From positions 297,899 to 361,898 of the forward strand of contig QPGO01000035.1 of the NCBI GenBank assembly GCA_008632985.1: a stretch of 64,000 nucleotides of DNA, given 5' to 3'. Under the pieces are notes generated by a model. It saw only the letters and a list, made by a program, of their open reading frames with translations, was not told the origin of the DNA and ran no database searches. Below, one piece after another: positions 11,856 to 49,600 of the stretch. Every line of letters begins with the position of its first letter. Position 1 is the stretch's first letter. The position numbers were made by a program, and so were the translations under genes. Origin of the DNA: Psammoneis japonica. Lineage: Eukaryota.

Positions 11856-13438
11856 TTAGAGATCCCAAATGTCTCCGTATTCATGGCGCTTCCCACAATA
11901 CTTGCACGTGAAGGTTTTATCGGTGCGGTAAAAGCTTGGCAGAACATTCTGGTACGCGTCGGGTCCCGTGATGCAATTGGGATTCTTGCAAGAGATTTCC
12001 TTGAAATTGTAAATCTTGGGTGGCATGTCAACCCGGTACTTTGCCTTGACGGATCGGTCGGCAATCAGATTGACCGTGCAACCGGGAGACACGGCTGCAA
12101 GTTTCTTGAGCTCGTTGGGGCTCATTTCGAACACATCAGGCAAGGACATGATGCCTTTGTATTCCTCGTCGGGGTCGCTCGTGTGAAAAACACCATGAGA
12201 GCCTCTCACATTGAGCTTGAGGATGCGTCGAATCTTGGAGATGCGATCCCAAATAATCTCGGGAGACTTGCCCTTGGCAATGTGGTCAATGACCGTGCCA
12301 TCGTCGACGGGTTTAATGCCCACCTTGAAGCGGTCTTCGACGTGCGTCTTGCGAGTGACAGGAATCTCTGTAATGAAATGCTTTTCCTCGCTCTCGGGCT
12401 CGAGGCCCTTGCCGGTAAAGTCACCGCCGAGTTTGCCAGCCACGAGCGAGAGCTCAATGACTCGCGTAAAGTAACCATTCATGGCTTGCTCATCCCATCC
12501 GTTGAGAGGGAGAGCATCCAAAAAGGTTGGAATAACGGGTCGCTCGCGGTGTCGGGGAAGTGGGTGGTAAAAGCGGGTGTTTTCTGGAAGCTCAGGCAAC
12601 CACTTTTGTTGAAAGGTAACAGCCTTGCGGAGATCCTTTTCGCGATCGCGAATCTCATCTCCCATGCGCTCCAACTGAAGGCGAGTAAAGTACCAACAGT
12701 CACAAACCTTACCGGACTTGAGGTATTCTTCAATGCTGTCATACTCTCGAATCTCAAAGCCGTGTTGCAGCATAAGCGTCTTGTACGATTCTGGCATTTG
12801 AAGCTCGGGAGGAGCCACAAGATCGACAATTACCTCTCGAAAAACGCAGAGTCCATCTGCCTTAGAGTGGACGGTACGACCGTGCAGCAAATCTCCAATG
12901 AGCGCCACATGAATCTTGGAATCGTCCCATTGACGCTGTTCGAGAAAGGTGAATTCATCGAGAAACTCTTGCGTGGGATGCTCGTGACGTCCGTCACCCG
13001 CATTGATGAAAACGGGCTTTTCCCGACCGATCCGTTCGGCATACTCGGCGAGTTGTTCCTCCAGCGCCAAGCAGACGCCTTCCATTTTGGTGCGCATGAT
13101 AAAGATAGACCGACGGCCATAACCCACCAGCATCTTGATGGTATCCACAAGACTTCCTTTTTGGTAAAGGACGATGTGGCCGCGTCGAAAATGTTGAGTT
13201 TGACCTCGTGAAAGTTGGCAGCGCTTCGGAAGGACTCTTTGGTACGTGTGGAGGCTTCTAGAAACATGAGATAGACATTGAGGTCTGGGTCGACAATGCG
13301 AAACTCCGTCATGTCCTTGCCTGCCGTCCACGCAGCTTTGAGCTCACGCGTCTTTTGATACAGATAACGCTGCTCATCCACACTCAAATCACCCGCTGCC
13401 GCCAGAGTGCGGCCATGAAAAGGATTCGAGCCAGACAT
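11856..13438 (-). CDS. pyrBI: Aspartate carbamoyltransferase catalytic chain fused to the regulatory chain (PyrB-PyrI); frameshift near 13150
   Basis: ATCase motifs FLEASTRTKESF, INAGDGRHEHPTQ, GDLLHGRTVHS, YFTRLQLER and YHPLPR. These are followed by PyrI motifs DGTVIDHI, KGIM, TVNLI and the Zn ligands CKNPNC...CKYC. Confidence 0.92.
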
Positions 13439-13796
13439 GTCACTGAGAATTGGATTGGCTTCAGTGTGAGATGCAAGAACGTACTCCGAGACTTTTCGGG
13501 TGGTAAGAAGACAATGTTGTGGTTTGTGGTTGACACCAACCTTCAACTGAGAAAGTGAGGCGCGAAACCGATCTTTTTGCGTGGTCCGCCATCGGACGGT
13601 TGCGACGAACGCTTTTTCGCGCGCTTTTCGCACGATCGCGATTCGTGTTGCGCGACCTGTCAGACCGTCGTCCGAAGCAGCCACTCTACATACAAAAAAA
13701 TACGCAGGATCAATGCAACGCAACTGCACCATAGAGTTTATGAATGGTATGGTACCGTATTTCACCCTGTTGCTGCTATCATCTTATATTTCGTTT

Positions 13797-23409: not shown

Positions 23410-25120
23410 ATGAGCGACGACAGCAACACCCATTCTGAGAGCGACGATAAGTCTCCAGGAGACTCTCCTTTGTCTAACAAGAGGGTAAATAACGCAGAGG
23501 AAACGGAGGAAGCGTCTTCGGGCGATTCACGAGCTTATGGACGCATTGAAGGAGACTTTTTCGACACTGAAGAGACTTCAAGCGATGAGAACACCATTTC
23601 AAAGACGAGGATGATTCTCAGGCCCCCCAAGAGGCCTTCCAAACCTCAGCGCGACAGTGAACCTCCCAAAAAGAGGGTGGCGCGTGTGAAGGGTTCGAAT
23701 TCGAGGCCCCCTCTTAAAGAGCGAAATGTCAATCACCTTCAAACGAAGCTCGCTTCTGTCCAAGAGCAGCTGGCCACTGCGATCAAAGAACGCAAAGAAT
23801 CTGCCAAGACGTTGGCTGACGCCGAGCGGAAGCTTTCCAAGATGACCGAGCAGCTGTCCGAGAAGAACTTGAAGCTCCTTGGATGCAGGAAGGACGTGTC
23901 GGCATTGACGAAGGCGCTTGGAGCTGAGAAGTCACGCGTTTCGCAGCGCGACAAGAGCATCGCTGACAAAGAGCGAAAGATCGCCGCAGCTCAAGTGAAA
24001 CTTGACGCTGCCGCTGACTCCAAGAAAGAACTTGCATCCAAGCTTCGGACAGTCAATGGAGAGCTCAAAAGAGAAAGTAGAAAGGCTGCCAAGCTGGAAG
24101 AAGCAGCTGGCCAAGTCAGCTTCAAAGACGCCGAGATCAGTCGTCTCCGAGCTGAGGTCAGAGCGCTGGGTGCACTGCAATCAGAAAACAGGCGCCTGAA
24201 GCAGTCCATCAAGGACGAGGCTGTAGCAAAGAGGCAACACGAAGAAAAAATGGCGGAGTTGAAGCTTCAAGAGATCAAGGCAATCTCCAACAAGCGCGCT
24301 GAAGAGCACCAGTTCAAGCGCGATGCTGCAGCCGCCACTGCACACGCCAAGTCTGCTCATTTAGCAAGCAAGCATCACTTCACCACAGAAGCAAAAGAGA
24401 AAGAGCCAAACAGAAAAGAAACAGAGCGACAGAGGCGTTTGGAGACTGCACAAAGTGGAATTTCAGTGGCTTCTCAAATGCAAGGCCTTGGCTTTGGAAA
24501 CCAAGGCATTCTCCAAGCGGTGAGTGGCATGTGTTTGTTTTGTGCACGTGTTGTTTTGGTTGCATGTGATGCATGACTCACTGCTCCTTTTCCTTTTGAA
24601 TGCTTTCACTTTGTACAAGGCATTGGCGGATCGCCAGCGAGCAGCAAACAGTGTGAGCACCTCGTGTCGACTTGCAGTGCAAAGTCTGACTGATGACATT
24701 GTGCACACAAACTGACTGACATCATTGTGCACATTGTGTCTTTTCATGTTACACCAGGCATTGACGGATCGCCAGCAAGAAGCTGGAAGCATTCCACCTC
24801 TTGCTGTCGCAACAGACGGACTCCCCAGTGGTTGGGAGGAAGCCGATGACCCTTCCACGGGGAAGAAGCATCATTGCAATCGGTTGCTCGGAAAAACCAG
24901 GTGGACGAGGCCTGTTGTTGCGCCTCCAGCTCCTTCCAATCCTCCTCCACTGCCACCTCCGCCTGCGCCTCTTCCGCCGCCTCCTGAAGAAAAAGATTCG
25001 GGCAAGGAGAGCCATGCCGGCAGTCAGCATGAATCGACCTCGCAGGCGCAGCTTCAAGAAAGGTTTCCACATTGGCAAAACAAGTGCAATGCGATTGTCT
25101 TTCTCTTGCGGCAGAATTAG
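23410..25120 (+). pseudogene. Transposon cargo gene: long coiled coil, WW domain and proline-rich tail; spliced, TpA-mutated
   Basis: 388-aa coiled-coil ORF with a GTGAGT donor near 24520. A later exon reads LPSGWEEADDPSTGKKHHCNRLLGKTRWTRP (WW domain), followed by PPPLPPPP. Confidence 0.7.
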
Positions 25121-25318
25121 ACATGACAGCACAGTTAGATGACATTTAGGACACCTTGTTTACATTGCGTATAATCTGCCATTAAATTGCGACTCCCAAT
25201 CCATTCTGTAGCTTGCTGCTGCCGCAGTGAGTGGTGCGACGGTGCGACGGTCCGTTTGCAAAAAATTGAACAATGCTGCTGTACACTCTAGCTAGAGATG
25301 ATCCTAAAACCAATGTCA

Positions 25319-26449
25319 CTAACACAAGCAGCTGCTCCAGCAGCCGCAGAAGATCATGCTCTTAAGCATGAGATCTGTTGTCATTTCATTCAGGATCTGT
25401 TGCACATGAAAGATCACCACGTCCGTGTGGGGGCGCGGTTCGAATAAGCTGACAGTTTTTAGGCGCTGCGTCAGAGTCTGAAAGATGAGCTCTATTGGAT
25501 TCAACTTGGGTGAATAAGTGGGAAGGTGCCAAACGAGCACATTCACAGGCAAGCCGTCGGGCCCGGGAGTCGTCCACATTGGATCTTGAAGTGTGTCGGA
25601 TTCCGCACCTTTGTGGATGACAGCATTGTCCAACATTAAAATATCTCCACGATTGAACCACCCTTGAACAAGAAGCATTTCCACAAATGCCATGAAAGCC
25701 GCGCTCGTGCCATTCTCCACTCCAACACTGTGCTTGATGGGCGCTTTTGTCTCATCCACTCCCATGCATGCTGTGAGATTGTACCGCTGCCGACAGTCAC
25801 CATCAACAGCCACATTGTCAGCTGTTCCTGTCAAAGGATTGACTCTCCCTTTTCTGGAAAAAATGTTGGTTCCTTCCACATGCTTTTCATCTGCAAATTT
25901 GAGTCGACGAGGGTCAAACTGTGAGATGAAACGTGTGAACTCAAAGCAATGCACGATGTTCTCGGGTTTAAACTTGTCAAGTGGCACAAGATTGCTCTTT
26001 TTGAATGATGCCTTGAAATCAAACCGAGAAGCAAACCATTCTGAAATAAAAGATGGGGAAACCAATTTGCCATGCGTCACGAGCAGCTCTTCCACATGGC
26101 TCTCATTCGACCTTGAGGGTTGTTGGAAACGAAGCCACAAAAGGTGGCATTCCTCCTCTGGAGTCAAAGCAATGGAACCAACACCTCTTACTCGCTCTTG
26201 ACTGCGAGCAATTATATCAGGATCAACCACACAGCCATCCAAATCAACTTCATCCATTGCTTTCTTCGCAAAGTTCCGAGAAACACGGCCCAATCTTGCG
26301 ACCTCAGCAACCTTTGGCTCCTCGCCTGTGACTGATGTCAATTTCAGTTCTTCACACACCCTTGCAATCTCAAGCTTCTTCAACACGTCATATGACTTGC
26401 CACGCCAGTAAAATCTGCCATTGGCATTCACGTCAAGCCCCGACGCCAT
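25319..26449 (-). CDS. DDE transposase (IS630/Tc1 superfamily, DDE_3-like), probably inactivated by Tyr->Cys/His changes
   Basis: HTH-like N-terminus and catalytic motifs KFADE, MLDNAVIH and LPTYSPKLNPIE. Confidence 0.88.
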   Translation of the reverse strand: MASGLDVNANGRFYWRGKSYDVLKKLEIARVCEELKLTSVTGEEPKVAEVARLGRVSRNFAKKAMDEVDLDGCVVDPDIIARSQERVRGVGSIALTPEEECHLLWLRFQQPSRSNESHVEELLVTHGKLVSPSFISEWFASRFDFKASFKKSNLVPLDKFKPENIVHCFEFTRFISQFDPRRLKFADEKHVEGTNIFSRKGRVNPLTGTADNVAVDGDCRQRYNLTACMGVDETKAPIKHSVGVENGTSAAFMAFVEMLLVQGWFNRGDILMLDNAVIHKGAESDTLQDPMWTTPGPDGLPVNVLVWHLPTYSPKLNPIELIFQTLTQRLKTVSLFEPRPHTDVVIFHVQQILNEMTTDLMLKSMIFCGCWSSCLC

Positions 26450-27087
26450 GCTGCCGAGAATGCAAGTGTCAAAAATCCCAACTGGTGCTTTGCGTCCTCG
26501 ATGCGTCCTCGAATCTCAGGCACACACCAAATTTCTTTTCAAGTCAGTATGATATGAACAAAGATAAATTGTCTGATGCATTTGTGAAGGGTAGTCTTAT
26601 CTGTATTGAACGTTTCAGACGGCATGCCTTTACCGCAGACGTCCATTGCTTCTGGTGTCACACTTCCAGTAAATACACGTAGAAAATGTACTGATGTCTA
26701 CGCACCCCAAATGGGGCTTCGGGTCGCTTTCGAGGATTTTTAGCGCGCACCGCCCTGGAGGAAATCACGTGAAGCCACCCGCTTCACAGCCGAACCCCAT
26801 AGAAATTTGCGCGTGTGTCAGTTGGTCTGGCTGGATAATATATTTTAATAATAAAAGATTAAATAACGCATATATACAATATTGAAATTCCAAAAAATTC
26901 CGCGCGTTTGCACTTGATCAACGCGATCTTTCTGGAGAAGAATCTTTCGCCAAAATAAAGCCAAAGCATATCTCATCCATCCATCCATACGGTACAGTAG
27001 GCCTAAGATCCACTTGTTGCAGCCAACGTCGCTCAGCACACTGGAATTGCATTGGACAGACGCGTTCTCGAACACTCATCCATCGCC

Positions 27088-30005: not shown

Positions 30006-31178
30006 ATGCCAATCTCCATCAGGTCCATGTCTTCCAATTCACTGGTCTCCTCCGGGAGTACCGGTAGCGGCGGCGCAGATAAAACCTGCGAAGGATGCGG
30101 TGTCCGCACGCACAAGAGCAAGAAGTTCGGCGTAAAGCCCGTCACGAACGCCTTCGTTTACGAAGGAATCTGTATGAAGTGCAACCCTGAGAACGTCCCT
30201 GAGGATGTACGCGATGCACTCCAGTGTTATTACGTCAAGCAGGAGAACAAGGCTCAGGAAAGCGCTGCTAAAGCGGAAGCGAAGAAGCTAGCCAAGTCCT
30301 CGAGTTCAGTGAGCTCGGACGAGGATGCCGGAACCTGCGAAGGATGCGGTGTACGTACGCACAAGAGCACGAAGTTTGGCACAAAGCCTGTCACTAACGC
30401 CTTCGTCTACGATGGAACCTGCATGGCATGCCGCCCACAGGATGTCCCTCCGGAAGTCCGCGATGCACTCCAGGGCTATTACACCAAGCAAGAGAAGAAG
30501 GCCGAGAAGAGCGCTGCTAAAGCGGAAGCTAAGAAGCAAGCTAAGGCCCTTTCCAGGTCCTCGAGTTCAGTTGTCTCAGACAGTGACGACAAGACCTGTG
30601 AAGGATGTGGTGTCCTTACGCACAAGGCCAAGAAGTTCGGCACGAAGCCCGTTACTAACGCTATGGTCTACGAAGGAACCTGTATGAAGTGCCAACCAGA
30701 CAAGGTCCCCCAGGACGTACGTGAGGCACTCCAAGGATACTACGCCAAGCAAGAGGAAAAGGCCAATGCCAAGGCGAATAAGGTCTCTAGGTCTTCTTCT
30801 ACGAGCAACTTGACCAAGCCGGTTGAAGCTCCTCCCGCTAATGAGTCGCCGGTCAAGGGCGAAATCACGGCTGATCAAGGCAGTGTCAGTACTTGCACTG
30901 AAATGGAGACTTCTTTCGAAGACTCGGTTGCAGTCAAGGTCGAGGACCATAGCGTTGTCACTGAGAATACCGACGATACTTGTGAGCCTGCTGATCCCGT
31001 GGATGACGCCGCTGATCCCGTTGATGAGCCCGTCGTCACCGAGGGACGTCGTACTTCCAAGTACGTCGCTGGTGCTGCTGTTGTAGCGGCGGGTGCGGCT
31101 GCTGCTCTCATGTTTGTCTCGGATGGAACTTCGAGCAAGGGCTCATCGCTTCGTAGGACTCAGACACGCGCTGTGTAG
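30006..31178 (+). CDS. Hypothetical protein with three CxxC-x~23-CxxC repeats and a C-terminal hydrophobic anchor
   Basis: Three copies of TCEGCGVxTHKxKKFGxKPVTNAxVYxGxCMxCxP followed by a helical segment. Tail YVAGAAVVAAGAAAALMFV. Intact 390-aa ORF. Confidence 0.85.
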   Translation: MPISIRSMSSNSLVSSGSTGSGGADKTCEGCGVRTHKSKKFGVKPVTNAFVYEGICMKCNPENVPEDVRDALQCYYVKQENKAQESAAKAEAKKLAKSSSSVSSDEDAGTCEGCGVRTHKSTKFGTKPVTNAFVYDGTCMACRPQDVPPEVRDALQGYYTKQEKKAEKSAAKAEAKKQAKALSRSSSSVVSDSDDKTCEGCGVLTHKAKKFGTKPVTNAMVYEGTCMKCQPDKVPQDVREALQGYYAKQEEKANAKANKVSRSSSTSNLTKPVEAPPANESPVKGEITADQGSVSTCTEMETSFEDSVAVKVEDHSVVTENTDDTCEPADPVDDAADPVDEPVVTEGRRTSKYVAGAAVVAAGAAAALMFVSDGTSSKGSSLRRTQTRAV

Positions 31179-32923: not shown

Positions 32924-33859
32924 CTTTCTTGACACAAAACTTCTTTAGAAGGCTTCACTGGTAATCACAAGACCTCCTTGGATGACTCGACAACTGCGAC
33001 GCAAGTGGAAAGGCAATAACGCTGCGTTGATTAGTTCGTGGGGTCTTGTAGTTTCAACGCTCTCAACTGTGAGCAGCCGCAAGCGGTGTTGTCGAGCGAG
33101 CGACGCGACGCGACGGTGAGGGTCGAAAGAATCTGTCCGTCATGCGAACATTCGATGGGGCGCCATTTTGATCCCAGCATGTCCAAACGAAATCAATGTC
33201 AAAGTCAGACTATGAAGTTGACCAGCTCCGAAGAAAAGGTGAGGGTTTTCAGTGGGACAATTCTGAGTGGTTTGAAACATGAGGCCAAGCTGTGCCAGGC
33301 CCTTTCAAGACGTGCTCTCGGACAGGCTCTGGGTGGGGCCAGAGGAGCTTGCATGCAGAATTCCATGTGCTCAACATTGCATGCAGCCCCAGCACCCAGG
33401 GCTGGTGGGACATGTCTCCAAACAAGGCATGAGCCTGATTCATGCCACTTTTGGGCCCACTGGTGCTTGGTGCTGGGGGGTCATTGCCGCTGGTGCTTGG
33501 CTTGGTGTGTGCGAAGCGGCGGGACCCAGTGCAGTTGCCAGCCAAAACTTGCAGTGTTCACATGTCACTGCGAATCAGGGCATGTGTTCAACACCACAGC
33601 ACTGCTCTTTGATGGCCAAGAAGGCACCACACTTCTTGTCAGCTTTTGCGACCTCTTCACGCACCTCAAAATGGGGTCGGCAAAACAGCCCCCCATCAAC
33701 ACCTCATGGCACAAAAGAGAAAAAAGACCCAAGATTGTGCTGGAGTCAGATTCTTGAAGGTGGGGGATGGGGCTCAAAATGTTGCAGGAGCATTGATCTC
33801 ATCAATGAGTGCAGCCAACCTCCAGGACTTGATCTGAGCTGCCGTGTCAATGTTGCGAG

Positions 33860-34226
33860 TGCACTGTGCTCGAAGAACGAGTGCAAACGAAAGTAGAACA
33901 GTGTGCGAAAAGTGGAAATTATAAGATTAAATTTTGCTCTGTGATTTTTGGTTTCTCCGAACGAGTTCTCAATGGCCTAAAGCTTCTGTACTGCTTCTAC
34001 AGACAAAAGGCCTTTCGGAGAATGTGTTCGTGACAACAGATTGTCCGGATGCGATTGCTGTTGACACGCAAGATGTCAACATCGTCAATCGATCGTATTT
34101 GCAATTCTCGACATCCGATCAACTCTGTGTGATCGTTCTGTCCTTTGTACGCATCCACGACTGTGGTGCGATTGACACACAAATAATGTGCAATCACAAA
34201 CATGCACGTGACAGTCGCGTGCTGCA
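33860..34226 (-). repeat. 3' LTR of the Gypsy (the more TpA-mutated copy)
   Basis: Colinear without indels with 38232-38598 and adjacent to the PPT. Confidence 0.93.
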
Positions 34227-37200
34227 TTCGCCTCCCTAATTGCACATTAGAGTCATTTGTAAGTGGATCATTCGACGGACATCGACAGTGTCAACAATGT
34301 CTCCACTTTCACTGCATTGTGCCATTGGCAACAACTGTTGTTGTTTTGTATGGGCAACATGGGGCCGTTCCAATTTCCGAATGTCTTTTGAGAGTGACAT
34401 TGTTTGTTTCTCACTTAACATGCACACAAGCAGTGTTGCGTCGAGTGTTCTCATTGACGTTCTTGTTGATGTGAACACAAGGACTAATTGTCCTGGAGCA
34501 AGTGTTTTTCCTGATGTCGATTGCACATGGCATCGTGCCCAGCACTTAATGTGCGCTCTTAATCACGGCGTTCACTTGCTTGCTTCTTGTGGATTTCATG
34601 TAGTTTGGCGGGCTTGCTTTACATGCCATGTTGCTCTGCTGCACTGCCACGTTTCACAAGCAACAACAAACGATGGTCAAAGACATTATGACCATTTCGT
34701 CTTGATGATCAATCCTGTGATGGTTGTGAATTCCATCATGGATTTTTTTTTTTGCACTTCAACCATCTATCAGTTGGATTTTAATCGTCATTTGGACGTT
34801 TCTTTCTGACATGCCGGTGTCATTTTGTCATTCCGAAGGCACTGGTTTTGTGCACCAAGTGGGTGAATGTCCATTTTTCTTTTCTTTTTCTAGATCTTTG
34901 GCACATCTCGTGTGTCGACATGATGCACATTTTAATGTCTTGCCTCGTACATTGTACAATGCAACCGTGCGGGTGTTGTGAGATTGTCTTTTGCCAGTGT
35001 GAAGTGGATGCGTATAATGTGCACCAATCTGTCACTGTTTTTTCCTAAATCGTCCTTTAAAAAGGCGATTTTATCCTTGTGACATGAGCATTTTTCGATC
35101 TCGCTCGCCTCCACGAAAAGTGTTCGTATGATGTGTCGCGTCCGACAATTTGGAGGGAATGTCTTTATCCCGTTTTAACGGCAGGACATTGTCGTAGGAT
35201 TCAATTTTCTATGGTGAGTCGGCTGATCGTGTCTGTCGCGACGATGTTCGCCTTGCCCTCGTTGCACTCTAATTCGGGACTGAAGTTGTCAACGTATGAC
35301 TTTGTCCGTTGTGTCTTATGATCCGTGTGTGTATAAATCTGTTGGCCAAACAGTGTGTTTTGGAATTTTACAAGTGTTTTCACTGTGGACAGAAGTTCTT
35401 TTTTCCGTTGTAACGCACAACATTGAAATCCGTGCATGACAACAACATGGTTTTTGATTTGACACACTCCACATTTTCGGAGACTTTTCATTCCGTACTT
35501 GCACTTTTGCCGTTTGACCTTTATTGAGGTGAATTTGGCTGGCATTGCACAGGAGATCGTTGAGACTACATGTCTCGACAACAGTGACGTATGACAACGA
35601 GATGTCGCAGTGTTCTTTGCGTTTTTCTCGTGTTGCGATTGCTTGAATCGCCTCCATTTTCTTTGTAATCGATTGCACATCGTTACGCATGGAAGTCTTG
35701 ATAGTTTATTTCAAGTTAAATGGTGAAGGACTTTTGTTGTTAACCTTCTAAGCGACTGTTCTAGTCGTTTGAATGCCGCACTAAGCTGTCACTTGCACAG
35801 GTGACATTTTGAAGTTACTTTTGTCAGGCACAAACGATCACATGTGGTCGTTCTGACAACTTCAAACCTGTTGTGAGTTCACTCAAGTGTTGCACAAAAA
35901 TGTCTGGGGCTCCACAGATTCTCATTGGAAGTCCACAGTGCTCATTTTCTCCCCACGGCATGATTTTCGTGTGAGCACGACGTGTGCTTTTTTCATTTGA
36001 CATGGTGGCATTCCATGTTTGAATCAAATAGATTACACACATGAAACGTTCTTGCTTCAATGGTATTTCCTGAATGTTGGGTAAAGGATGCACCACCTGT
36101 ACGAACCTTGTGCTGAGCTTCTGAGTGTCGGACACGGTCGAACTCGACCTGTTTTCTTTAGACAATGAGTCTCAGAGCGACTCATTCAGAGCAATTTCAT
36201 TCTTAAGACTTCAATCTTTCATAATAGGTCAAACTCCTTTTGATTGGACGCCTCCAAAGACTGTGATAGGAGAAGGTTCTCACGCGTCGTGGAATCGCGT
36301 CAGATTTTCCACGATGAGATCCACTGATGCTTCCCATGCATTCGTCTGAGGAACTTTTCAAAACGATTTCAACCTCTTGAGAAGAAGATTGAGTTGGTTG
36401 TGTTCATTTGGGTTAGATGCATCGCCGTAGTTGTCACTTGATTAAGATCGATGGCGTGATAATGTGAGTCGAGGACCATTGGTTCCATTATTAACTCTAT
36501 TCACGGCGTCATATTTTTCAATGTGATCGGTTTTCAGCTTGAAAACATCGGCATCGAAGAGTGTATGAACATTCTTCATAAGGTAATTGCTTCTTCCCAT
36601 TAGATTTCTTCATTTGCGTAGTCCAATATGACTTGCAGGACTGGACATTAAGTCGCGTCCCATGATCATATCATTCGAACCTGAAGAAAATTTGGTGTTT
36701 TCAACATATACTGTTTGAATATCAGTATGCCTTAAATTTTCGCATAGTGAGAACTGAATTCGGTGTTTACTATCAGTCGTAAAGAGCTCACCCTTGGTTT
36801 CCCAAGTTTTTGGTGGCGGATTCTTGTGTTCTCAACTTTCGCACGAATTTGCGCAAAATTATGGTTGACGATGTTCCGTTATCGATAGGAACACGTAGAT
36901 GCTTTTTTTTTTTTTTTTTCTCTCCTTTCCCAAGGAAGTATTCATATAAATGATGACTCCTGGACTAGTATGAATTATTTCTGCCTTTTTTCTAGGCTTC
37001 CTAATATCCAGTAAAGCATATAATTCGTGAATAGACCAAAATTATTCTTCGGATTCAGTCTGGATCATCCGATCAAATTGGTATTTTTCTTCACTGAGGG
37101 TATCAGAATCTGATTCTTTGCCCTTATGCTCTTTTTCTTTGTTCAAGGAACTCGCTTTGAGTATTTTTTGAACCGCCTGATCAATCATGACGTTCATCTC

Positions 37201-38231
37201 TTTTTTTGCGAGCGGCATTTTCGTTATCGCGACGCGACCGCGTGCGATTGCCATTTGAACGGCGCATTTTTGGGTCTCTTTCAGAGTCACCCTTGCACTC
37301 TTTTGCTAGTTCATTTTTAGAATAGCTTCAATCCGTGATGTAGGTATTCTTTTTTCAAAGATAAGACCTTGCATTCACTTTGGATTGTTCTGGTACCATG
37401 TGGGAGACCATTTTTGGAACCAAATTTGGAACCTTTTTTATTTTGGAACCAACTGCGCTATCAGAGCCTGAGTTGATATGTATTTTCGTCACGGACGTCA
37501 TGAACGACCTTTAGATGACTCAAAACTTAATCAGCTCATCAAGGATGAGTTGCAATAGTTGATTGTTTTGGACAGTAGACTGATGCTGCCATCCTTGCGG
37601 TGCGAGTGATAGCCAACAGCTCACGGCTCGGTTTCCCGCTAGATTCAACATAGAATCGATTGAAGGGTCGTATGGACGCTCTTCATTGACCTCTTGGGTC
37701 GAATAGGCACTCTCTTGCTGCTGAGAGCCTTGGGTTTCTTCAGATCATCTCGAAAATAATAATTCTGATTCTGAAGTGCAATTCTTGGAGGACATGAGAT
37801 AAGAGACTCTTAAGGTACTTTCCAACGGTTCCATCTTGCTCTTGGACTCGAGGCTCGTCGATTCGGTCTCTAAAAACTCTCCAATAGTCTCTCCTTGCAT
37901 GCCAGACGTATTTCTCGGACCTGATCGACTCAAGACTTGAAATTCTACCCAACCATGACTTGGTGTGGATATTTCGACAATGCTGTGCTCTTGTAGAGTC
38001 CTTGGTCCTGAGACACTTGGAATGGATCGTATTAGAACGAATCTTGTCATTTGCTAGACGAAAAACAGCGTTCCATCTTGAGGTACTGCTCGGATTGAGC
38101 TTCTTCCGCTCGGAAATCGATTCCAGCAGAACTGATGCGATTCGTTCCTGTTTATAGAAGAATTTACAAAGGCACATTAGTTAAAATTTTCATTTTCCGT
38201 GCTTTTTACCTTCTGAGGTGTGTATACACAA

Positions 38232-38598
38232 TGCACTATGCTCGAAGAACGAGTGTAAACGAAAGTAGAATAGTGTACGAAAAGTGGAAATTATAAGATT
38301 AAATTTTGCTCTGTGATTTTTGGTTTCTCCGAACGAGTTCTCAATGGCCTAAAGCTTCTGTACTGCTTCTACAGACAAAAGGCCTTTCGGAGAATATATT
38401 CGTGACAACAGATTGTCCGGATACGATTGCTATTGACACGTAAGATGTCAACATCGTCAATCGATCGTATTTGCAATTCTCGACATCCGATCAACTCTGT
38501 GTGATCGTTCTGTCCTTTGTACGCATCCACGACTGTGGTACGATTGACATATAAATAATATATAATCATAAATATGTATATAACAGTCGCATGCTGCA
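38232..38598 (-). repeat. 5' LTR of the Gypsy (the less mutated copy)
   Basis: Colinear with 33860-34226 and retains the TATATA-rich tract at about 38548-38582. Confidence 0.93.
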
Positions 38599-40377
38599 CG
38601 AGAGAAGCTGAGAAGAAGTGTGCTGATGACTGGTGGCTGCACAACAAGAGGAAAAGAGCAAAGGAGCTGCCCAACAGCAAGCAAGCCATGACCCACTTTT
38701 TTGTTCAAGTTTGTCACCTCAAATGCCTGAAACAAAAGGACTTGTTCTTTGGAAATGGCGCCAGACTTTGCCCCCTTGTTCTCTGGCCCCAAATGAGAGA
38801 GCACACTTGGATTGACACGGGCATGAGAAGAGCCTCCAAGCCTCCTCTCATTGTTGCTTCATTTGATCTTTTCAGACCAAGCTCAACTTTTAACTTGCAT
38901 CACAGCATCATCTTCTGTCAACCAATGTCGTTCAATTGCAAGTGCTCAACAGGACGTCCAGGAATGTCTCGGTCAGTCACTTGACGTTTTTCTGCATGTT
39001 GGACAAATTGATGACAATGAGCTTCCACGCAGACACCTGCATGCTTTTTGTACGAGCAAGGGTCGCTGATGGAATCTTTTTTGGTTTTGGAGTTTGTTGA
39101 CGCATCATGCATCATCCCAACCACATCAAAATCTGCATCATTGGCTCAACTTTGATGAGAAACCCACCCAACAATTGGGGTTGACGAGGCATCTCATCAT
39201 GATGCACATCCAGGAAGTCTTTTGGCAGAGCACTGTGTGTGCTGGTCCATCTCAAATCAAGTGGATGTTGGCCACCAGAACAGCGGTCAATCGTTGTCAC
39301 CCTTCCTCAGCAGCCAGCAGGGGGGCATGCAATGGTGGAATGACTGGAGGAGGCCCCGTGTCTGGTGCCACTTTTGCAGATGATGGAAGTGCCGCCACAG
39401 CTCCCACCTCCCATGGAGTGCACAATTGAGACGAAAAACCCTTGTGGCCCTCAACAATTCTTTCTTTGACCCACTGGTGAGCTCTGGAATCTGATGGAAT
39501 CTCTGTGACCTGCAAGTGTTTGAACCTGCGAGTGTTTGAGCACAGAACAATGGAGTCAAATCTGCAAAAACTGTGCTTTCTGCAGGAGAAACACTTCAAT
39601 GATGCCCGCATCATTTTTGTTGTTGTGTTGTTGTTGCTGTTGTTTGCAATGCAGCATTGGGTGTTGCTCTGCAAGGAGTCCTCCACACAGGATTTGAGGC
39701 CAGTTGCTTCTCATGCCTTCAGGCCACACCAAACACTTTGATGGATGTGCGTGCTGTGAGCATCCCCCCAAGCAAGACGGAGCGAGGAGCGGCTCGGCTG
39801 CTGCGCCACTCCCTTGCTGCATGAGGAGAGCCTCCAAGCCTCTTGGCTGAAGCTCAGTGGTCTGCTTTAACACACCATCATTGTTGCTTCATTCGATCTT
39901 TTCAGACCAAGCTCAACTTGCAACTTGCATCATGGCATCATCTGTCAGCCGATGCCTCATTCGATCGATTTCAAGTGGTCAGTCATTTGACGTTTCTGCA
40001 CGGACATTCGAACGATAATGAGCTTCCACATAGAAATCTACGTGCAAATGTACGGGCACGGATCGCTGCTGGAAGAGAATCTTTTCTCGGTTTTTTCAGG
40101 TTGACGCATCACCCCGCATCCGCATCCCATTGCATTTTGCATGCTCGATTCAACACTCAACACCATCGCGTTCAAAAGACGTCAATCCCCACCCACGGAA
40201 CACGGGGTTCACCCAACTTGCTCTACCCAGCCTCATTGTTCGAAGCAGGAGCACCAGTGACGAAGTTTTGTCGAAAGGCCGCTTGCTCTTGAACGATTCA
40301 GATTCGTTCATCCCGAAAATCTAAGTTCGCGTTTGAGCAGATTCTACACAAGAATTATAGTAAAACCTTATTGACTC

Positions 40378-43317
40378 ATGGACTGGCCAGAGAACAACGG
40401 CCCGCTTCCAGCTACGCGAGATGAATTAGAAAAGGCACTCGAGGTGGTGGAGGAGGAAATGATGGATGCAGGGCGAAAGAAAGATTTTGCGCAAGCACAA
40501 GAAAAGGAACAGTATCTTTTGCAGCTAGAAGCGCTGAAAGAGCTCGTGCAGTCCAACAACAAGGAGGAAACAATCGAAACGTTAAACCAAGAAATAGACA
40601 AGTGCGTCCAGGAACGACATTGGAAAAAAGCAAAATGGCTTGATGACGCTTTGCTCAAAATGACGCAGCCTAAATCGCCAGAAACGAGCACCATTGAAGC
40701 CGTTGGAGAGGATGACTGTAACAGCTGCATCCTTCGAGATCACATGACAGTCTTACAGTCATATCCCTTGGCGTGGAGGGATAGGGACAAAGTGATACAT
40801 CCGTTCCCTCTTCCACCGGACTTTGAGCGAGAAGAGAAAACCGTTTTGCAGGCACTGCGTGATGCGACTGCAGACAGGCCACTCGAGATTGGAGTGTCTT
40901 TCTTTGGGGCGACCACCTATCGACTGGCAGCGTTCCTCGCTGCTCCAGGCAACCGTATTTTGCATTTATCGGGACATGGTGATGAAGGAATTCTTGCCAT
41001 AGAAAGTTGTGGAGCCTTGCAGTATTTGACAAATCATGAATTGAAAGAGTTGGTGGAGAACGGACCAGGGCATTTGAAGTTTGTCTTTTGTTCTGCGTGT
41101 TTTTCTCGTACCGCAGGGGAGGCCTTTTACCAAGCCGGGGTACCTCATGTCGTATGCTGCGAAGATAATGTGGATGACATGGCAACCATTGAGTTTACCC
41201 GTAATTTCTACCTGCAGCTTGCCAGTGGACAATATTTGGACGACGCGTTCAAACTGGCCAAGGCTGCTCTCAAGGTAGATGCCGCGGTCGGCGATGCCAA
41301 AGTCATTCTCTTACCCGAGAAAGACGAGGACGATCCTTATCACCATGTACAGATATTTTTCAAAGCATCTGCGGGAGAAAAGAACATCGTGAAGACCCCC
41401 GGAATGGTCAACCGCTCCATGCAACTACCTTCTTCTCCGCCTGGATTCTGTGGTAGACAGTTGGATATGTACAAGGTGATTGACTATCTCAAGAGCTCGA
41501 ATTTCGTCCAAATTTCAGGAGTTCCAGGTATCGGAAAGACGTCTCTCGCCCAAGCTGTGTGTGCCTACATTCACAGACGCATGGACATATTTCTGCTGGA
41601 AGATATCTTTTGGTTGCCGCCTCTGAGCAACAACCACAGTGGCAATGGTGTTGCTAGGTGCCTCCAGGAGGTCGTGCAATCAATAATGTCCAACGAAGTT
41701 AAAGCTGATTGTCACGGCTACAAATTATGCTGCGAGAAGGCAACCGGCCTCCTTCAGTGCATTCGTGGGCTGATATTCATTGATGCTTGCAAAATGCACA
41801 CTACATCTGCATTGGCAAAATTACAGCTGTTTCTCGAGATTGTTTTTCGTGGTGCGTTTCGAGTCTCTGTCGTTCTTATCACCCCTGCAGGTGAAGAGAT
41901 AAGAAGCTAGATTCTACCATTTGACGCGCGCATGGAGCTTGGTCCTATAGATATGAAGGCATCGGCGCTTCTATTTGGCAACCAATGCCAATTGGTGCGC
42001 CAGGGCCGGGATCCGGCAATTCGTACATCACAAGAACTCAAAAATTTGCTTGTCCTCCCAACCTACGCCAGCGCAACGGAAATCATGCCTTCCATGTCAA
42101 AGCGATGCTCTGAAATATTCAGTCGGATCGGAGAGGGGAATCCAAAGTGGATACTCGAAGCAGCTGACGCGATGACAGCAAACCCGCTCTTGTACGACGA
42201 ACTAATTAAAATCGGAATGAGAGAAGAATTTGACCGTGGGAACTTTGAGACTCGTGCTAGGGTGGACCGTGAATGCAAGCGCATCAAAGAGAAATTAGAG
42301 GCTGCGGCCGAACGTTTTGACTATGGGCAAGCAGCACAATTGGAATCAGAATTAGAGGAGCTGGATCAGCTAAAAAAGGTGCTGCCTACTTTAGGAAGAC
42401 TCGAACGTGAGGAAAAAGACTTGTGTGAACGCCTAGCGGAAGCGGACAAATCGAAACATTTTGATACGGCGAAGGACCTCTACTCTGGACTGGTCGAACT
42501 CAGAGAAAAAATCAGGAAAGAAAGGGAAGCCCTGGCAGATAATGAGGTTAGAAAAGACAAGCAAGATGGTGCTCCACCGATTCAGCAAAAAGATTCACAA
42601 GATGATGAGCGACCTCTATCTCCTAGCGCGATTGAAACCTTGTCCGGAATTTGCTCGTTCACCGTTTCTGCTAGCAATCCTGACCCCGAGGACTTCTCCT
42701 TTACGTTGGCCATAACCCAGTCTTCAGTTGTGGATTTTGACTTTGACTGCTCGGGCGGCGTTTCTGCCATTGTTTGTGCCACAAACGAAAACTGCCACCC
42801 TGTTACAGGCACTGCTATTGGGGCCATTAGTGAAGCCGGAGGCAAGGAATTGCAGGATGCTGTAGATGGACTCGAGTCAACAGAGGAGAGCAATTGGGGC
42901 CCCGTCCGGTGTCCGACGGGTGAAGCCAGAATAATTGGGCCTCCCACAGAGACACGGCACTATGGAAGTCTCAAAGTTGAGCACGTGATCTTTGCTGTAG
43001 GACCGACCTATGCAGATGATGATGGACCGGATGCCCTGTCACACAAGGATGAGCTGCTTCGCCTCGCCTACAGGTCCAGCCTCGAACGGGCAAAGGAACA
43101 CCACGTCGTAGCAGTTGGATTTTCCCTCATTGGAGCGGGTCACCGAACCGGTGGTAATTTGGAAAGGCCTTTGCGCATTGCGATTGAGACAATCTCCGAC
43201 TTTCGAGGATACAAGGAATTGAGGCACGTTGAACTTTTCGCTTTCAAACATCGTGAAGCCCTTCTCCTGAAGCGAATTGCTCACGACGTCGCGAAACACA
43301 CCGAAACTCTAAACTAA
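40378..43317 (+). CDS. Multidomain UVR-CHAT(caspase-like)-P-loop NTPase-UVR-Macro protein, interrupted by one in-frame TAG at 41908-41910
   Basis: CHAT His/Cys motifs ILHLSGHG and VFCSACFS. FCGRQLD...ISGVPGIGKTSLA (NB-ARC/STAND-like). UvrB/C-like helices such as LEAAAERFDYGQAAQL. Macro motifs CPTGEARI, HVIFAVGPTY, LAYRSSL and GFSLIGAG. Both ORFs are in the same frame. Confidence 0.8.
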
Positions 43318-45013: not shown

Positions 45014-45200
45014 GCTTTTTTGTCAACTTGCTATTTTTGACATTCTGTGGAGCCATAACGGTGCCGGCAATTAGAGGATGCTGTTTTGCATTCGTTCCCT
45101 AGCTACATTCGAACATGGCAGGGCGATGTGCCGTTGTGGATTGTGGAATTCCAGAATGGTGCGGTGTGGTGGTGCGGGGTGCGGACGGATCGACAAGGCC

Positions 45201-47387
45201 GGGAGTTGCATGAAATGTCAAAATTTTCATTTTTCCCTGCAAAAACGCACAGAATGTCAGAGAGACCTGCCTGCACGTGAGTGCCGCCACAGTCTGCACG
45301 ATGCTGCGAAAGTTTGTGCACTTGCCACCAAAATGCTGCTCGCACTTTTTGCCAGGGGACATGCCACAGACACACAATGTTGCATTTGGCTGCAGGACAA
45401 ATCCTGTGTTTTTGGGGCTCTGTTTGATTTGACAAAATGTCGAAATTCCATGGAAGGTTTCTCAACAATTGCCTTTTTTCCCAACCAGTGCTGAGACAAA
45501 ATGCCCCCAGAAATGCAGGTGGTTGTGTCTTCACCAGACCCCGCCAAAATTTCTCGTTGAGAAGACAACCCACTGGATGGAATGAGAATGTTTAAATGAT
45601 GTTGCACAGTGCGTGAAAAATGACAACCTGCACTCACTCAATTGGGTTGGCATGGTGACATCAAGCACTGAAATGAACGACAAAACGGTGCGACAATCGA
45701 TGATGACGACACCTTCTATCGGTGCCTGCCTGTGCGCTCATTTTCTACTGTATTCAAATTTGTATATCCATATATACATCATAAGTAGTTGCCATGAGCA
45801 CATCACGTTGTCGGTCACGGCGTTTCTGCACGCATGATGATGCGCATGGCACCGTACGACTGCAAGAGACGCCGTTGAGTTCCCTTCTCGATCCCGAACT
45901 CCGATTTGAACCAGTCACGACTGTCTCAACCTCATCGCTTCGTGCGATAGTACAATTTCAAATTCAAACCCGCCAAATAGCTCCAACCGCCAAAACCAAA
46001 AAAGGCCTCTTGGGGGGGACTGGGGCTAGAGACTATTTTGGATTATTGTCGTTCAAGATTCCCTTGCGTGCCGTTCCAAAAGCGTTCCAAAAGCGTTCCA
46101 AAAGCGTTCCGAGAACGTTCTCATATGCACTAATTCGCGCGGAAATCAAACTTTGGAGCCGGTCAATTCGCCAATGAGACATGTGATGCATTGTAATTAG
46201 TGCACTATTGTTAGAACTATTTGAGTATGGCACAATAGTGTAAAAGTTTAACAGATTATATGGATTTATTGCAAAAAGGTACACCCGTCAAAACAGGTTT
46301 CTATTTTCTCTAAGAAAAAGAACGGCTGGTAGAAGTCTCAATAATTTTGAGTTACAGTGGCTATAAGTTGAACTATAAGGGTGTGTTGTAACTACTAGTA
46401 TTGTTTGACAATAAACCATATCTATAACAACCGCCAATAGCTCCAACACGGAAATACCATTCGACGAAATAGGCATTTCGTCATTCCCGTGTTTCCACCG
46501 TTCCGGGACCGTACCAAAAGCGTTCCCGAAGGGAATCTCTCTAAAAGGCCTAACATCAAAACATTGTTTTTAGACGTTGGAAACGAATGAGAACCCTGCC
46601 CGATAATACATGGAACCATCAATCCACCTACGGCAACAAAAACACTGCTGTATGGCAATAGCGCGGTATCAATCATTTTAGCATAGTGTAAAACATCAAA
46701 TGCGCAACACACGACTGTACCACTCACCATGCAAATGCGCCTGCCCAGAGCCACAGTAGATTGTCTTGCAAGGACAGTCATTCAGAGGCAGACAAGATCG
46801 GAATGGATTTGGAACCAATGGGTTCGCGTCATACTTGAGCACTTTGCAGGACATACAGTAGTGTGCGAGTTGTGGGGCCTTCTTCAAGATGAAGGCAACC
46901 TTTCTCATGGGTTCCTGCCCACTCACTTGTTGTGTGCCCTTGTTTTCTGAATCTGCATTGTTCTGAAACCATTTTGCCGGGAATCTGTGGTGGAGCACAC
47001 GAAGACACGATAAGAAAATGGTTTTGTGTCGGAATAGAGTTAATTGTAAATCTGGACTTGTTGCGTACCATCATTCCAATCTCTTTTTGAAAATCAACGT
47101 ACTGGCATTAGCTTCACCATCTTATCATCTTAGATTGACTGGTAACACAGGTTTATGGATGATAATGGCATGCACGGTGACGGTGGACGGCACTGACTTT
47201 CGCTTCGCATCAACGAACCATCGCCGCGTTCGCCGTTCGACCCCATCTTCTATCTGGTGTCTGGTGTTCGCATAGCCCAAAATGCAACGTTTTAGGGGAT
47301 GTGTAAAATGAATTATCGTCACGAAAAAACACGAAAAACCACGAAAAACAGGGAAAAACGAAAATTTCGACATTTCATGCAACTCCC
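45201..47387. mobile_element. Putative non-autonomous TIR element of about 2.2 kb with 39-bp imperfect TIRs
   Basis: GGGAGTTGCATGAAATGTCAAAATTTTCATTTTTCCCTG at 45201-45239 matches the reverse complement of 47349-47387 with 2 mismatches, both CG/CA. No transposase recognised; TSD uncertain (possibly CCG). Confidence 0.7.
46072..46110. repeat. Short tandem repeat (CGTTCCAAAAG) x ~3.5
   Basis: Read directly: cgttccaaaagcgttccaaaagcgttccaaaagcgttcc. Confidence 0.8.
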
Positions 47388-47519: not shown

Positions 47520-49600
47520 CGTTTTTGTGTCTAACCTGTTGTTATGTGTCAGGTTGCAACGGAGTCCAACCAGAACTCCAATCACCACATCTTCCTCTAT
47601 TTTCATCGGAAGCATGACAAGGGTGCCTGCTCAATTGTGCAGAGGGCATGGGAGGTGGGATGCGAACTCCCTTTTCCTCTGGTCGGATTTTGGCGAGAGC
47701 CTTTTCATTGACCACTCAGTGGTTGATGATTGCAGACTTTTTCATGTCTGTCAGGCAGTCGGGGGGTCGGGCAGTCGGGCAGTTTGTCCTTCAGAATTTG
47801 AGAGTGTGTCCCTCGGATTTTGGAGCGGCATGTGTTGTTCAGCACAAATTGATTCTTCTGATTTGGAGAATGATCATCAAGGACATTGGAGGTCATGGGG
47901 GCATCCTAAAAAATTGATGAATTCTCTACGATGGGTGCATGGGGAGCTGTTTTTCAGATGAGCTCGAAAGCACTGTGAAACTGGGATTGCCAGTGCGGCA
48001 TGTTGAAAACTGCACTCAGCTTTGAACGAAGACAATTTGTCATGGATTGCACACAAAAAAGTCACATTGAAAAAAAGCATGTTGAAAAATGAGTGGGTTT
48101 GTGCGATGTGCCATTTCAGCGATGAATTGAAAAAAAAGAGTGTCCGTGCACCTCGCTGCAGCCCCAAAAATGGCATGATCCATCAAATGTGACCGTCATC
48201 CACGTGGCCACTCTGCCACTGCAATGCCAGCCCCCTGTGGCAGGGCCCTGCACAAGCACAGGCAGTGCAGCATGCAATGGCACACACCCACACCCACACC
48301 CACAAAGAAAGACAAGTGGTCAATGCTCCCCGTGGGCCTGGTTTCTGGCTGGCCGGCAACTGCCTCACAAAAAGCAAAAAGTTTCAAAACAATGATGCCA
48401 ACAATGCCATCAGTGGCCGTTGTCCCTTTCCACAAGAAGCAGTCATTGGGACCCAACAAAATGCCAATGTTTTGCATTGTCCATGCAGTGGGTGCCTTGA
48501 TGCTGTGCAGTGACGGGGTCTCCTCAAAGGGTTTCACACAATGACTGTGACTGGGACAAGAACAATGCAGCAGCAAAGCCCTCTTCAGGGTTCTCAATCA
48601 ACTTGGGGCTTCTTCAATGGCAGTTCCCTGCCATGATTGTCACAAAACCAGAAAGCAAAGGGTGGCAGTCTACAAGCTGATTGTCTTCAATTGCTCTGCA
48701 GTGAGAAAAACAGTGTGAATGCATTTGGTGAGTGTGAGAAAAAAGCAAAGAAGGAAAACAAAATGAAGTGCAGCACTGGAGTAAAAAGAGGAAAGAAAGG
48801 CAAGGCCAAGAAAGGAAGAAAAAAATGAGGAAGGAATGCAAAACAAAGAAGAGCATCAAGAAGAAGAAGAAAATGCACAAGAAGACACAGAAGGACTCCT
48901 CCACCATTGTCTTCACCAACATCTCCACCAACGTCTCCACCAACAGATGCCCCACTCTGCCACCAAGTCACGGCAAGCAGCAAATTGCTTGAAAAGGCAT
49001 GAGAGAATCAAGAATGTCCTGGTTGTGCTTTGTTTGTGTGAAACCTTCTCTCACACTTATTTCTTCTTTCAAAAATTTAACTGTGCAAGTGCAGCCTTTT
49101 GTTGGAGCAACTGATGCAGCCAGCAGGTTGCAGAGCATTTTGTGGTTGGGCAAAACACCAGAGGAGGCAAATTTCAAGTGCAACAGTTGACATGCTACAA
49201 GATGAAATGTTTGCAAGATGCAGTGAAGCTGGGGCACCAAGAATGCAGGGCTTTGTTGTTGTTCCTGAGAAAGACCAGTTGACAATTCACATTCATCAGC
49301 AGAATCAGAGTGCAGTGGGTGCCGCTGTCATCCCGGAGGCATCCTGATCTTAAACATCAAGCAGACAGGCCATAGAGTGTGTGCAAAAGGCTGTGATCCA
49401 AAAGCACTTGGATGCTGGTGCTGGATGAGAGTTCATGAGAAAGCAGCAGCTGCGTGCATGTCAGCCTGTTGCCCATGTGAGAGCTTGAGAAAATCAGGCT
49501 CATGCATGGTGCGTGAACAACAAAGCTGCTAGCACATGTAAGAAAAAAGAAGAAAAACAAAGATGACAGATGCCCAAGTTTAGCCTGGCTCTCTTGAGTA
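47520..49600. repeat. Heavily degraded, unclassified repeat relic (TpA- and CpG-depleted)
   Basis: Very few TA or CG, an excess of TG/CA, and overlapping Cys/His-rich junk ORFs in all frames. Confidence 0.55.

Follow-up and report, generated by a model that had tools for sequence, protein, structure and literature searches.

Directional A:T-to-G:C hypermutation at TpA, graded by the neighboring base, in a retrotransposon and in TpA-free islands of a probable diatom genome

Mutation aimed at the dinucleotide TpA has been reported in the chlorarachniophyte Bigelowiella natans, in a preprint whose main text is the source for the following account (Mettrop et al., bioRxiv 10.64898/2026.01.13.699255). 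In mutation-accumulation lines of that organism, 231 of the 302 nuclear single-nucleotide mutations lay in two regions, one of integrated giant-virus DNA and one of virophage DNA; A>G and T>C made up 230 of the 231, and the paper states that every one of these GC-biased changes falls on TpA. They arose in some lines only, at about 1000 times the background rate. The genome as a whole contains TpA-poor clusters rich in CpA and TpG, most of them unannotated, and DDE-endonuclease and reverse-transcriptase domains are enriched among the TpA-poor coding sequences. The authors proposed an ADAT2-like protein as the deaminase. Until this preprint on a single chlorarachniophyte appeared in 2026, a mutation process acting on a eukaryote's own DNA specifically at TpA, from A:T to G:C, was not known. 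Here we analyze a gene-dense, eukaryotic 64-kb stretch of DNA (contig QPGO01000035.1, positions 297,899 to 361,898; called the window below, with positions counted from its first letter), and in particular a 4.7-kb long terminal repeat (LTR) retrotransposon within it at 33860-38598. The changes that we find are directional, restricted to TpA, alike on both strands, arranged in tracts, and graded by the 3' neighbor of the changed A.

Two better-known systems resemble this process in outline and differ from it in chemistry. Fungal repeat-induced point mutation (RIP) also consists of dinucleotide-specific transitions with the look of a genome defense, which ruin transposons and duplicated genes and reshape the frequencies of TpA, CpA, and TpG. 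However, RIP converts C to T at CpA and so creates TpA, whereas in the window TpA is destroyed (observed-to-expected ratio [O/E] of TA 0.03-0.35, with an excess of TG and CA). RIP also needs duplication and hits both copies over their full length, whereas here the change affects one LTR of a pair, single-copy flanks, and part of an element. The APOBEC3/AID enzymes likewise inactivate retroelements by enzymatic, context-dependent hypermutation, but they act on single-stranded DNA while it is being reverse-transcribed, where they turn C into U and leave strand-asymmetric G>A changes; the changes described here are A:T>G:C, strand-symmetric, made after integration, and present in DNA other than retroelements.

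The element is delimited by two 367-nt direct repeats with TG..CA termini (33860-34226 and 38232-38598), and it is flanked by a target-site duplication, CGAG, at 33856-33859 on the left and 38599-38602 on the right. All frames of its interior (34227-38231) are broken. A purine tract, AGGGAGGCGAA, adjoins 34227 on the minus strand, a motif resembling that of reverse transcriptase can be read by eye on the same strand, and the segment 35201-35710 (minus) gives a weak match to RT_RNaseH (E=0.003, below the cut-off). On these grounds the element probably reads along the minus strand, which makes 33860-34226 its 3' LTR and 38232-38598 its 5' LTR. Contig depth in one run suggests a family in which the interior is present about 200 times and the LTR up to about 600 times. 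Where the family copies differ from the window, the differences comprise 181 A>G, 182 T>C, 152 C>T, and 114 G>A, with 8-28 of each type of transversion. A search of metagenome contigs with a 19-nt word from the LTR found 20 loci, all of them chance matches of at most 31 nt, and no further family copies.

We compared the two LTRs position by position, without gaps. They are 94% identical, and the 22 sites at which they differ are all transitions of one polarity, with G or C in the 33860 copy and A or T in the 38232 copy. At 21 of these sites the 38232 copy has TpA and the 33860 copy has TG, CA, or, once, CG; the remaining site, at 34219, reads CAT in one copy and CGT in the other. Changes thus affected 21 of 60 positions in TpA, 1 of 166 other A/T positions, and none of 141 G/C positions (p=7e-13). 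The two strands contributed almost equally (12 A>G and 10 T>C). The 38232 LTR, with 30 TpA and a TA O/E of 0.86, is near the unmutated state. The 33860 LTR is partly hypermutated and has 10 TpA left (O/E of TA 0.35, TG 1.65, and CA 1.29). Ordinary divergence in the window is of another kind: three tandem copies of about 250 bp (30083-30809, plus strand, in an ORF of 396 amino acids; identity 82% and 69%) differ from one another at 39-72 sites, of which about half are transversions and 18-23% touch TpA.

This spectrum bears on whether a dedicated enzyme is needed at all. Biased mismatch repair, GC-biased gene conversion, or selection against TpA (as UpA in transcripts, or as TA target sites) would each have the observed net effect of AT>GC, and TpA is scarce across the whole window, ordinary genes included (O/E 0.49, with TG and CA over-represented at 1.25 each). 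We nevertheless give these processes very little weight. Gene conversion follows no dinucleotide rule of the kind seen here, where 1 of 166 A/T positions outside TpA changed against 21 of 60 within it. Selection cannot produce 21 substitutions of one type, and no others, in one LTR of a dead element, nor can it replace Tyr by Cys and His and add stop codons in a decaying gene copy, as described below; and the divergence of the tandem copies is quite different. A context-free bias from AT to GC, which the initial annotation of this DNA had named beforehand as one of the patterns that would refute its reading, was not seen.

Two copies by themselves give no direction, and a process resembling RIP could in principle have mutated the 38232 LTR by C>T at CpA and left the 33860 LTR as the original; fungal RIP, in the published description, prefers CpA and creates TpA. 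We therefore determined the polarity of change from two protein-coding sequences with outgroup homologs. The first is an ORF for a DDE_3 transposase at 25319-26515 on the minus strand, which is partly converted (16 TpA in 1197 nt) and has 17 relatives in the protein collection. At nine alignment columns, Tyr is present in at least six of nine outgroup homologs; the window ORF has Tyr at three of them, Cys at three, and His at three, encoded by TGY and CAY codons. At no column of conserved Cys or His does it have Tyr. Its overall Tyr content is 1.0%, compared with 2.9-5.6% in the relatives.

The second sequence is a fully converted copy of a protein gene at 239-1794 on the plus strand, corresponding to about 525 amino acids and interrupted by TGA stops at 449 and 956 and by one frameshift. 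Its homology is clear (phmmer E=8.5e-33; tblastn E=7e-114 over residues 4-526 of the 529-residue protein P0263), and no function is known for the family, whose other members (P0263-P0265 among them, and some drawn from transcriptomes of marine protists) show only a weak kinase/APH-like C-terminus. Among 453 residues of the copy there is no Tyr. Of seven columns at which the family has Tyr, six have become Cys (TGY) and one Phe, and four of seven conserved Arg columns have become His, Gln, or a TGA stop, which is the pattern left by CpG>CpA/TpG. Residues of other kinds have been preserved: Asp at eight of nine conserved columns and Gly at 10 of 11, while Glu, Lys, and Phe are mostly kept.

Over the two genes, 12 of 16 conserved Tyr columns have turned into Cys or His, and none shows the reverse. 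Together with the abnormal composition of the 33860 LTR, this establishes that TpA was destroyed, becoming TpG or CpA, and not created. The initial annotation had remarked that the favored sites are exactly the Tyr codons; the loss of Tyr in the mutated genes makes this visible, but as a consequence of the preference and not as its cause. The RIP-like history is accordingly highly improbable in our judgment. The outgroups show Tyr>Cys/His and never the opposite, and a complex sequence of 1.5-2 kb with 0-3 TpA, as found in the islands described below, cannot be an unmutated state. RIP mutates both copies, whereas all 22 differences between the LTRs run one way, and the 38232 LTR, at a TA O/E of 0.86, has no excess of TpA. 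The de novo changes in B. natans also run from TpA to TpG or CpA, according to the main text of the preprint (Mettrop et al., bioRxiv 10.64898/2026.01.13.699255).

A search around the transposase ORF found no terminal inverted repeats. Its two closest relatives, P0001 and P0002 (62% and 51% identity; from environmental assemblies), themselves have His or Cys at the conserved Tyr columns 57, 342, and 405, which hints that the same process may operate in their hosts.

We then asked which TpA dinucleotides had been changed. When each A is read on its own strand, the proportion changed in the LTR pair depends on the 3' neighbor: 14 of 27 for TAT, 6 of 15 for TAC, 1 of 12 for TAA, and 0 of 6 for TAG. 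The statement in the initial annotation that 20 of the 21 TpA changes have the mutated A in TAY is borne out, and the contrast between TAY (20 of 42) and TAR (1 of 18) is significant (Fisher p=0.0024). TAC alone also differs from TAR (p=0.03), and TAT and TAC do not differ from each other (p=0.53). Where a TpA has a Y-site on one strand and an R-site on the other, the change fell on the Y-site eight times and on the R-site once (binomial p=0.039). Recounted around the T, the same changes comprise 14 in ATA, 6 in GTA, 1 in TTA, and none in CTA.

These counts bear on another possible source of A>G changes, in which ADAR-type editing of double-stranded retrotransposon RNA would be fixed by reverse transcription and the edited copy recombined into the locus. 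ADAR has a 3' preference for G, the opposite of TAY. The element is indeed a retrotransposon with hundreds of copies, and a U before the edited A is favored by ADAR (Discussion of the preprint, bioRxiv 10.64898/2026.01.13.699255). However, the two LTRs of one insertion differ, so the change must follow integration; the strands were hit equally, 12 to 10; and TAG was changed at none of six sites. Single-copy DNA, a DNA transposase, and a cellular-type gene copy are affected as well, and ADAR is described as metazoan-specific (Iyer et al. 2011, PMC3239186). We find this route scarcely credible.

The depletion of TpA extends well beyond the element. We defined islands as sequence with at most one TA per 300 bp together with an excess of TG and CA, which gives 9388 bp; the background comprises 49873 bp. 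Across eight islands, in the size range 0.3-2 kb, TA O/E is 0.03-0.07, TG and CA are at 1.3-1.9, and CG is at 0.14-0.71. The most extreme island (61928-64000) runs off the end of the window, with O/E of 0.03 for TA, 0.14 for CG, 1.94 for TG, and 1.77 for CA. Another (47544-49057) is also poor in CpG (TA 0.05, CG 0.30), and the islands at 45101-45716 (TA 0.05, CG 0.66) and at 24225-25135, adjoining the transposase ORF (TA 0.07, CG 0.64), are less so. The element itself sits in an island, the left half of which (33050-33859; TA 0.04, CG 0.56, TG/CA about 1.6) has single-copy depth and the right half of which is 38599-40015 (TA 0.04, CG 0.39). The targets of depletion thus include an LTR element, a DDE_3 transposase, and a gene copy of unclear origin. 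Comparison of the islands with each other and with the window revealed no repeats common to them, the one repeat found being internal to an island, and none of 56 island ORFs matched a Pfam family at the curated cut-off. This internal repeat is direct and 107 nt long, with 81% identity between its copies at 38848-38948 and 39878-39981; they lie about 1 kb apart within the old island around the element and may be what is left of the ends of an older element.

Contig depth distinguishes the element from its surroundings: it is 50-80, as expected of single-copy sequence, at 33000-33710 and 38688-40100, and 6,000-41,000 over the element. The flanks (33200-33800 and 38600-39999) have a TA/(TA+TG+CA) ratio of 0.00-0.02; in the element the ratio is 0.07-0.26 from 34000 to about 36400 (0.02-0.26 for the depleted interior, about 34227-36400) and 0.20-0.34 over the interior from about 36400 to 38231 (0.20-0.42 over 36400-38598). 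At the right-hand boundary, 38598/38599, TpA density drops from 16-17 to 0-1 per 200 nt, a sharp step that fits insertion of the element into DNA that had already been converted. Within the 33860 LTR, the converted share of TpA increases from the flank side inward (4 of 11, then 5 of 7, then 11 of 12), which argues that the newer tract is centered inside the element and did not spread from the old flank. In all, about 2.5 kb of the 4.7-kb element are converted. As single-copy flanks are converted and the element is converted only in part, neither repetition of the target nor a whole repeated unit defines what is hit.

The simplest order of events would then be as follows. An older stretch of DNA would have been fully converted and lost its TpA; a high-copy, degenerate LTR retrotransposon would have inserted there, duplicating CGAG; and a later bout of TpA-specific A:T>G:C change would have affected the 3' LTR together with some 2.5 kb of the interior next to it, while the other LTR and the rest escaped. 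An artefact of assembly, in which hypermutated and unmutated copies of the family were joined and the LTR pair does not stem from one insertion, would yield the same picture. Judged by depth, the family has hundreds of copies; none of the run's contigs extends across the element, and many joints and loose ends were reported. We consider such an artefact improbable, given that CGAG matches at both ends and that the two flanks, alike in composition, make up a single island. A chimeric assembly would remove the claim of partial conversion but not the signature, as the differences would still record a TpA-specific process acting between family copies, and the polarity derived from the genes is untouched by it.

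The neighbor preference can be followed from the LTR pair into the interior and the islands. When the converted interior (34227-35800) was compared with the unconverted stretch, TAT sites had fallen from 70 of 204 to 17 of 94 (p=0.004), the share of TAC was unchanged (40 of 204 and 21 of 94), and YTAR had risen from 22 of 102 to 18 of 47 (p=0.046). The islands retain 24 TpA, compared with 1917 in the background. YTAR accounts for 12 of these 24 and for 337 of the 1917 (17.6%; p=3e-4). The other 12 comprise four GTAC, three CTAC/GTAG, two GTAA/TTAC, and three ATAG/CTAT, and ATAA, ATAC, and ATAT, which together number 649 in the background, have no survivors. The initial annotation had stated that the TpA left in the most depleted islands are mostly YTAR: the six survivors that it listed are present and YTAR is enriched, but half of the survivors are of other kinds, and YTAR is itself depleted 4- to 10-fold in islands, with 73-90% lost in those that are fully converted.

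Survival in the islands relative to the background of the same window, expressed per A-site, was lowest for TAT (0.016), followed by TAC (0.062), TAA (0.098), and TAG (0.10). GTAC stands apart: among the contexts in which a pyrimidine follows each A it survives best, with four survivors (for example at 1599, 24614, 25782, and 39051) compared with none for ATAT and ATAC/GTAT, although the background contains 156 GTAC and 382 of the latter. GTAC might be protected, for example by modification, or might simply be a poor substrate. The excess of the products leans toward TGY (per kb, TGC/GCA +26.4, TGT/ACA +10.3, TGG/CCA +14.4, and TGA/TCA +7.7), but CpG decay and the starting composition both confound this comparison. 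A sharp TAY rule, as first proposed, is too simple: a preference for TAT holds up in each of the three data sets, one for TAC reaches significance in the LTR pair and nowhere else, GTAC survives well, and TAR is eventually lost. The preference is graded, with TAT converted at least as readily as TAC, both more readily than TAA and TAG, and GTAC refractory, and every context is converted in the end. We read the gradient as visible early, in the LTR pair, and blurred at saturation.

The islands have lost CpG as well as TpA, and they alone in the window show the two losses together. The loss of CpG is uneven (O/E 0.14-0.71 among islands), and it is strongest in 61928-64000, 47544-49057, and 38599-40015 (0.14-0.39). 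No CpG change separates the two LTRs (0 of 141 G/C positions), which indicates that CpG loss is much slower than TpA loss. Survival of CpG in islands depends weakly on the 5' base (ACG 0.42, TCG 0.55, GCG 0.57, and CCG 0.65). This resembles the CpG decay of methylated transposons in its CpG depletion, in the accompanying excess of TG and CA, and in the Arg>His/Gln/stop replacements of the gene copy; unlike the process at TpA, such decay accounts for the CpG part only and is far slower. Judged by composition, CpG loss is most likely a separate, slower process, namely deamination of 5-methylcytosine in silenced DNA. We also considered a single deaminase behind both the TpA and the CpG changes, with a preference for TCG like that of BjADAT2; this was unsupported, as the survival of TCG (0.55) lies between that of ACG (0.42) and that of CCG (0.65).

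To which organism the window belongs determines how its signature relates to that of B. natans. For the amidase ORF (49794-51740, minus strand), the top protein match has 61% identity, and the named neighbors are a Bacillariaceae genome bin (54%) and Chaetoceros affinis (53%), both diatoms, and one entry at 44% whose name is incomplete ("Fragi"). For the ORF encoding a CDP-alcohol phosphatidyltransferase (PGP-synthase), five named organisms appear among the 120 matches listed: Nitzschia inconspicua, Cylindrotheca closterium, a Bacillariaceae genome bin, and two with incomplete names ("Synedr" and "Gra"). The first three we take to be diatoms, and the two incomplete names resemble those of diatom genera. 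Neither ORF has the 100% protein match that would be expected of B. natans DNA. On these matches the window is not from B. natans, and its host is most likely a diatom.

The window would thus represent a second lineage with the process first described in B. natans. As far as the main text of the preprint goes (bioRxiv 10.64898/2026.01.13.699255), the two share near-exclusive A>G/T>C change at TpA, its regional nature, islands depleted in TpA and rich in CpA and TpG, and targets of transposon type. They differ in extent, as a TA O/E of 0.43 bounds the lowest 5% of windows in B. natans, whereas by our reading of the profile 23 of the 64 1-kb windows here are at or below that value. They also differ in targets, which are a giant-virus insert there and an LTR retrotransposon, a transposase, and a cellular-type gene copy here. 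The 3' preference, the partial tracts, and the co-depletion of CpG seen here are absent from that main text, in which the words "context," "trinucleotide," "LTR," and "CpG" do not occur. A full-text literature search, whose coverage largely leaves out subscription journals, found this signature in the B. natans preprint alone and in no diatom paper. What is new here relative to the published main text is thus the probable diatom host, the other kinds of target, the neighbor preference, and the tract structure; the phenomenon itself is already in print.

We consider it probable, though well short of certain, that an enzyme caused TpA-specific A:T>G:C hypermutation of the element after its insertion, and that the same process made the islands, including the gene copy and part of the transposase. 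The absolute requirement for a 5' T, the symmetry of the strands, the regional action, and the dependence on the neighboring base point to an enzyme that acts at TpA on DNA, and not to replication error, gene conversion, or selection; the initial annotation had favored an enzyme over replication error and biased gene conversion, and the directional, TpA-confined, strand-equal, and context-graded spectrum supports it in this. The enzyme would act on chromatin that is silenced or foreign and modify a base of TpA there, and as TpA is its own reverse complement, both strands would be hit alike. That the modified base is adenine, converted to hypoxanthine by a DNA-acting deaminase and read as G at the next replication, is the leading candidate, which we would rate as not quite an even chance. 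It has a counterpart in TadA and ADAT2-ADAT3, which convert A to inosine with a 5' T or U. The native site of TadA is U33-A34, in the context UAC, and the substrates of eukaryotic ADAT2/3 never have U after A34. The initial annotation had offered a link to TadA-like enzymes as a hypothesis, and the fit is partial: TAC matches the native UAC, but TAT does not, and here T (14 of 27) and C (6 of 15) in the 3' position were acted on alike, while GTAC was refractory. Some ADAT2 enzymes do act on DNA; the one for which deamination of A in DNA has been shown, BjADAT2, has a preference for GAA when the target is A and for TCG when it is C (PMC10354150). Further candidates would be deaminases listed by Iyer et al. 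2011 (PMC3239186), which include stramenopile-specific ones of unassigned role, the stramenopile deaminase-SAM-Tudor proteins, and those of the LmjF36.5940-like kind.

The base that is modified might also be thymine. Hydroxymethyluracil in dinoflagellates and base J in kinetoplastids are found preferentially at T-A steps, and an enzyme of the TET/JBP kind could hydroxylate T at R-T-A in silenced DNA, yielding 5-hydroxymethyluracil or a base-J-like product that mispairs with G or is subject to faulty excision repair, so that T>C is fixed. TpA is palindromic, and all of our counts fit "T after purine" equally well (ATA 14, GTA 6, TTA 1, and CTA 0). On the other side, we know of no TET/JBP-kind enzyme or modified thymine in diatoms or chlorarachniophytes. 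The authors of the preprint prefer adenine deamination, which its main text presents as a proposal (bioRxiv 10.64898/2026.01.13.699255). We regard the thymine route as unlikely, but as one that deserves to be kept in view.

Several observations weigh against enzymatic conversion of adenine at TpA in a diatom, or against parts of that reading, in addition to the lack of a spanning contig. A Pfam search of 124 window ORFs (20 + 56 + 48) found no deaminase domain. A>G at TAY is T>C at RTA on the other strand, and the sequence fits deamination of A and modification centered on T alike. TAT is favored at least as much as TAC, unlike the context of TadA, and the GAA bias and the TCG bias ascribed to BjADAT2 are both absent here. 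The survival ratios of the islands presume a starting composition like that of the background. We estimate an odds ratio for context of about 15 in the LTR pair but an effect of only about two- to threefold by island survival. Among the best-supported 40 of 745 differences between family copies and the window, 10 would restore TpA, and these are split evenly, with five TAY and five TAR. Finally, the placement of the host among the diatoms is based on the named matches of only two proteins.

A wider proposal, which strikes us as more doubtful than probable, is that the signature reflects a dedicated natural DNA base-editing defense that rewrites TpA, tract by tract, in transposons, inserted viral DNA, and stray copies of genes. 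Such a defense would be shared by Rhizaria (Bigelowiella) and Stramenopiles (the diatom), or would have arisen twice, and its catalytic core would take T-A-T and T-A-C but not T-A-R or G-T-A-C. If this is true, it would be the first case in nature of adenine (or thymine) editing in genomic DNA directed against mobile elements, and a counterpart of RIP with the opposite chemistry; its signature would then provide a handle for finding the enzyme. The neighbor preference, the tract-like action within one element, and the slower loss of CpG are constraints on any candidate deaminase or thymine modifier. The process may be widespread in marine protists, where it would shape dinucleotide composition, the decay of transposons, and the content of pseudogenes. 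For annotation, long frames in such genomes that lack Tyr and lack TAA and TAG stops are likely to be converted relics and not genes.

In addition to the amidase and PGP-synthase ORFs, clear Pfam matches in the window identify ORFs for a PLP-dependent decarboxylase, a proteasome subunit, an LSM protein, and a Der1-like protein. An ORF at 11856-13783 on the minus strand encodes an aspartate carbamoyltransferase in which the catalytic carbamoyltransferase domains are followed by both PyrI regulatory-chain domains, also with clear Pfam matches; this arrangement in a single ORF is an uncommon fusion for a eukaryote. Two adjacent long ORFs at 40375-43317 on the plus strand, directly after a TpA-free island, encode by Pfam a CHAT protease with a STAND NTPase and then a Macro domain, a layout reminiscent of immune or cell-death modules.

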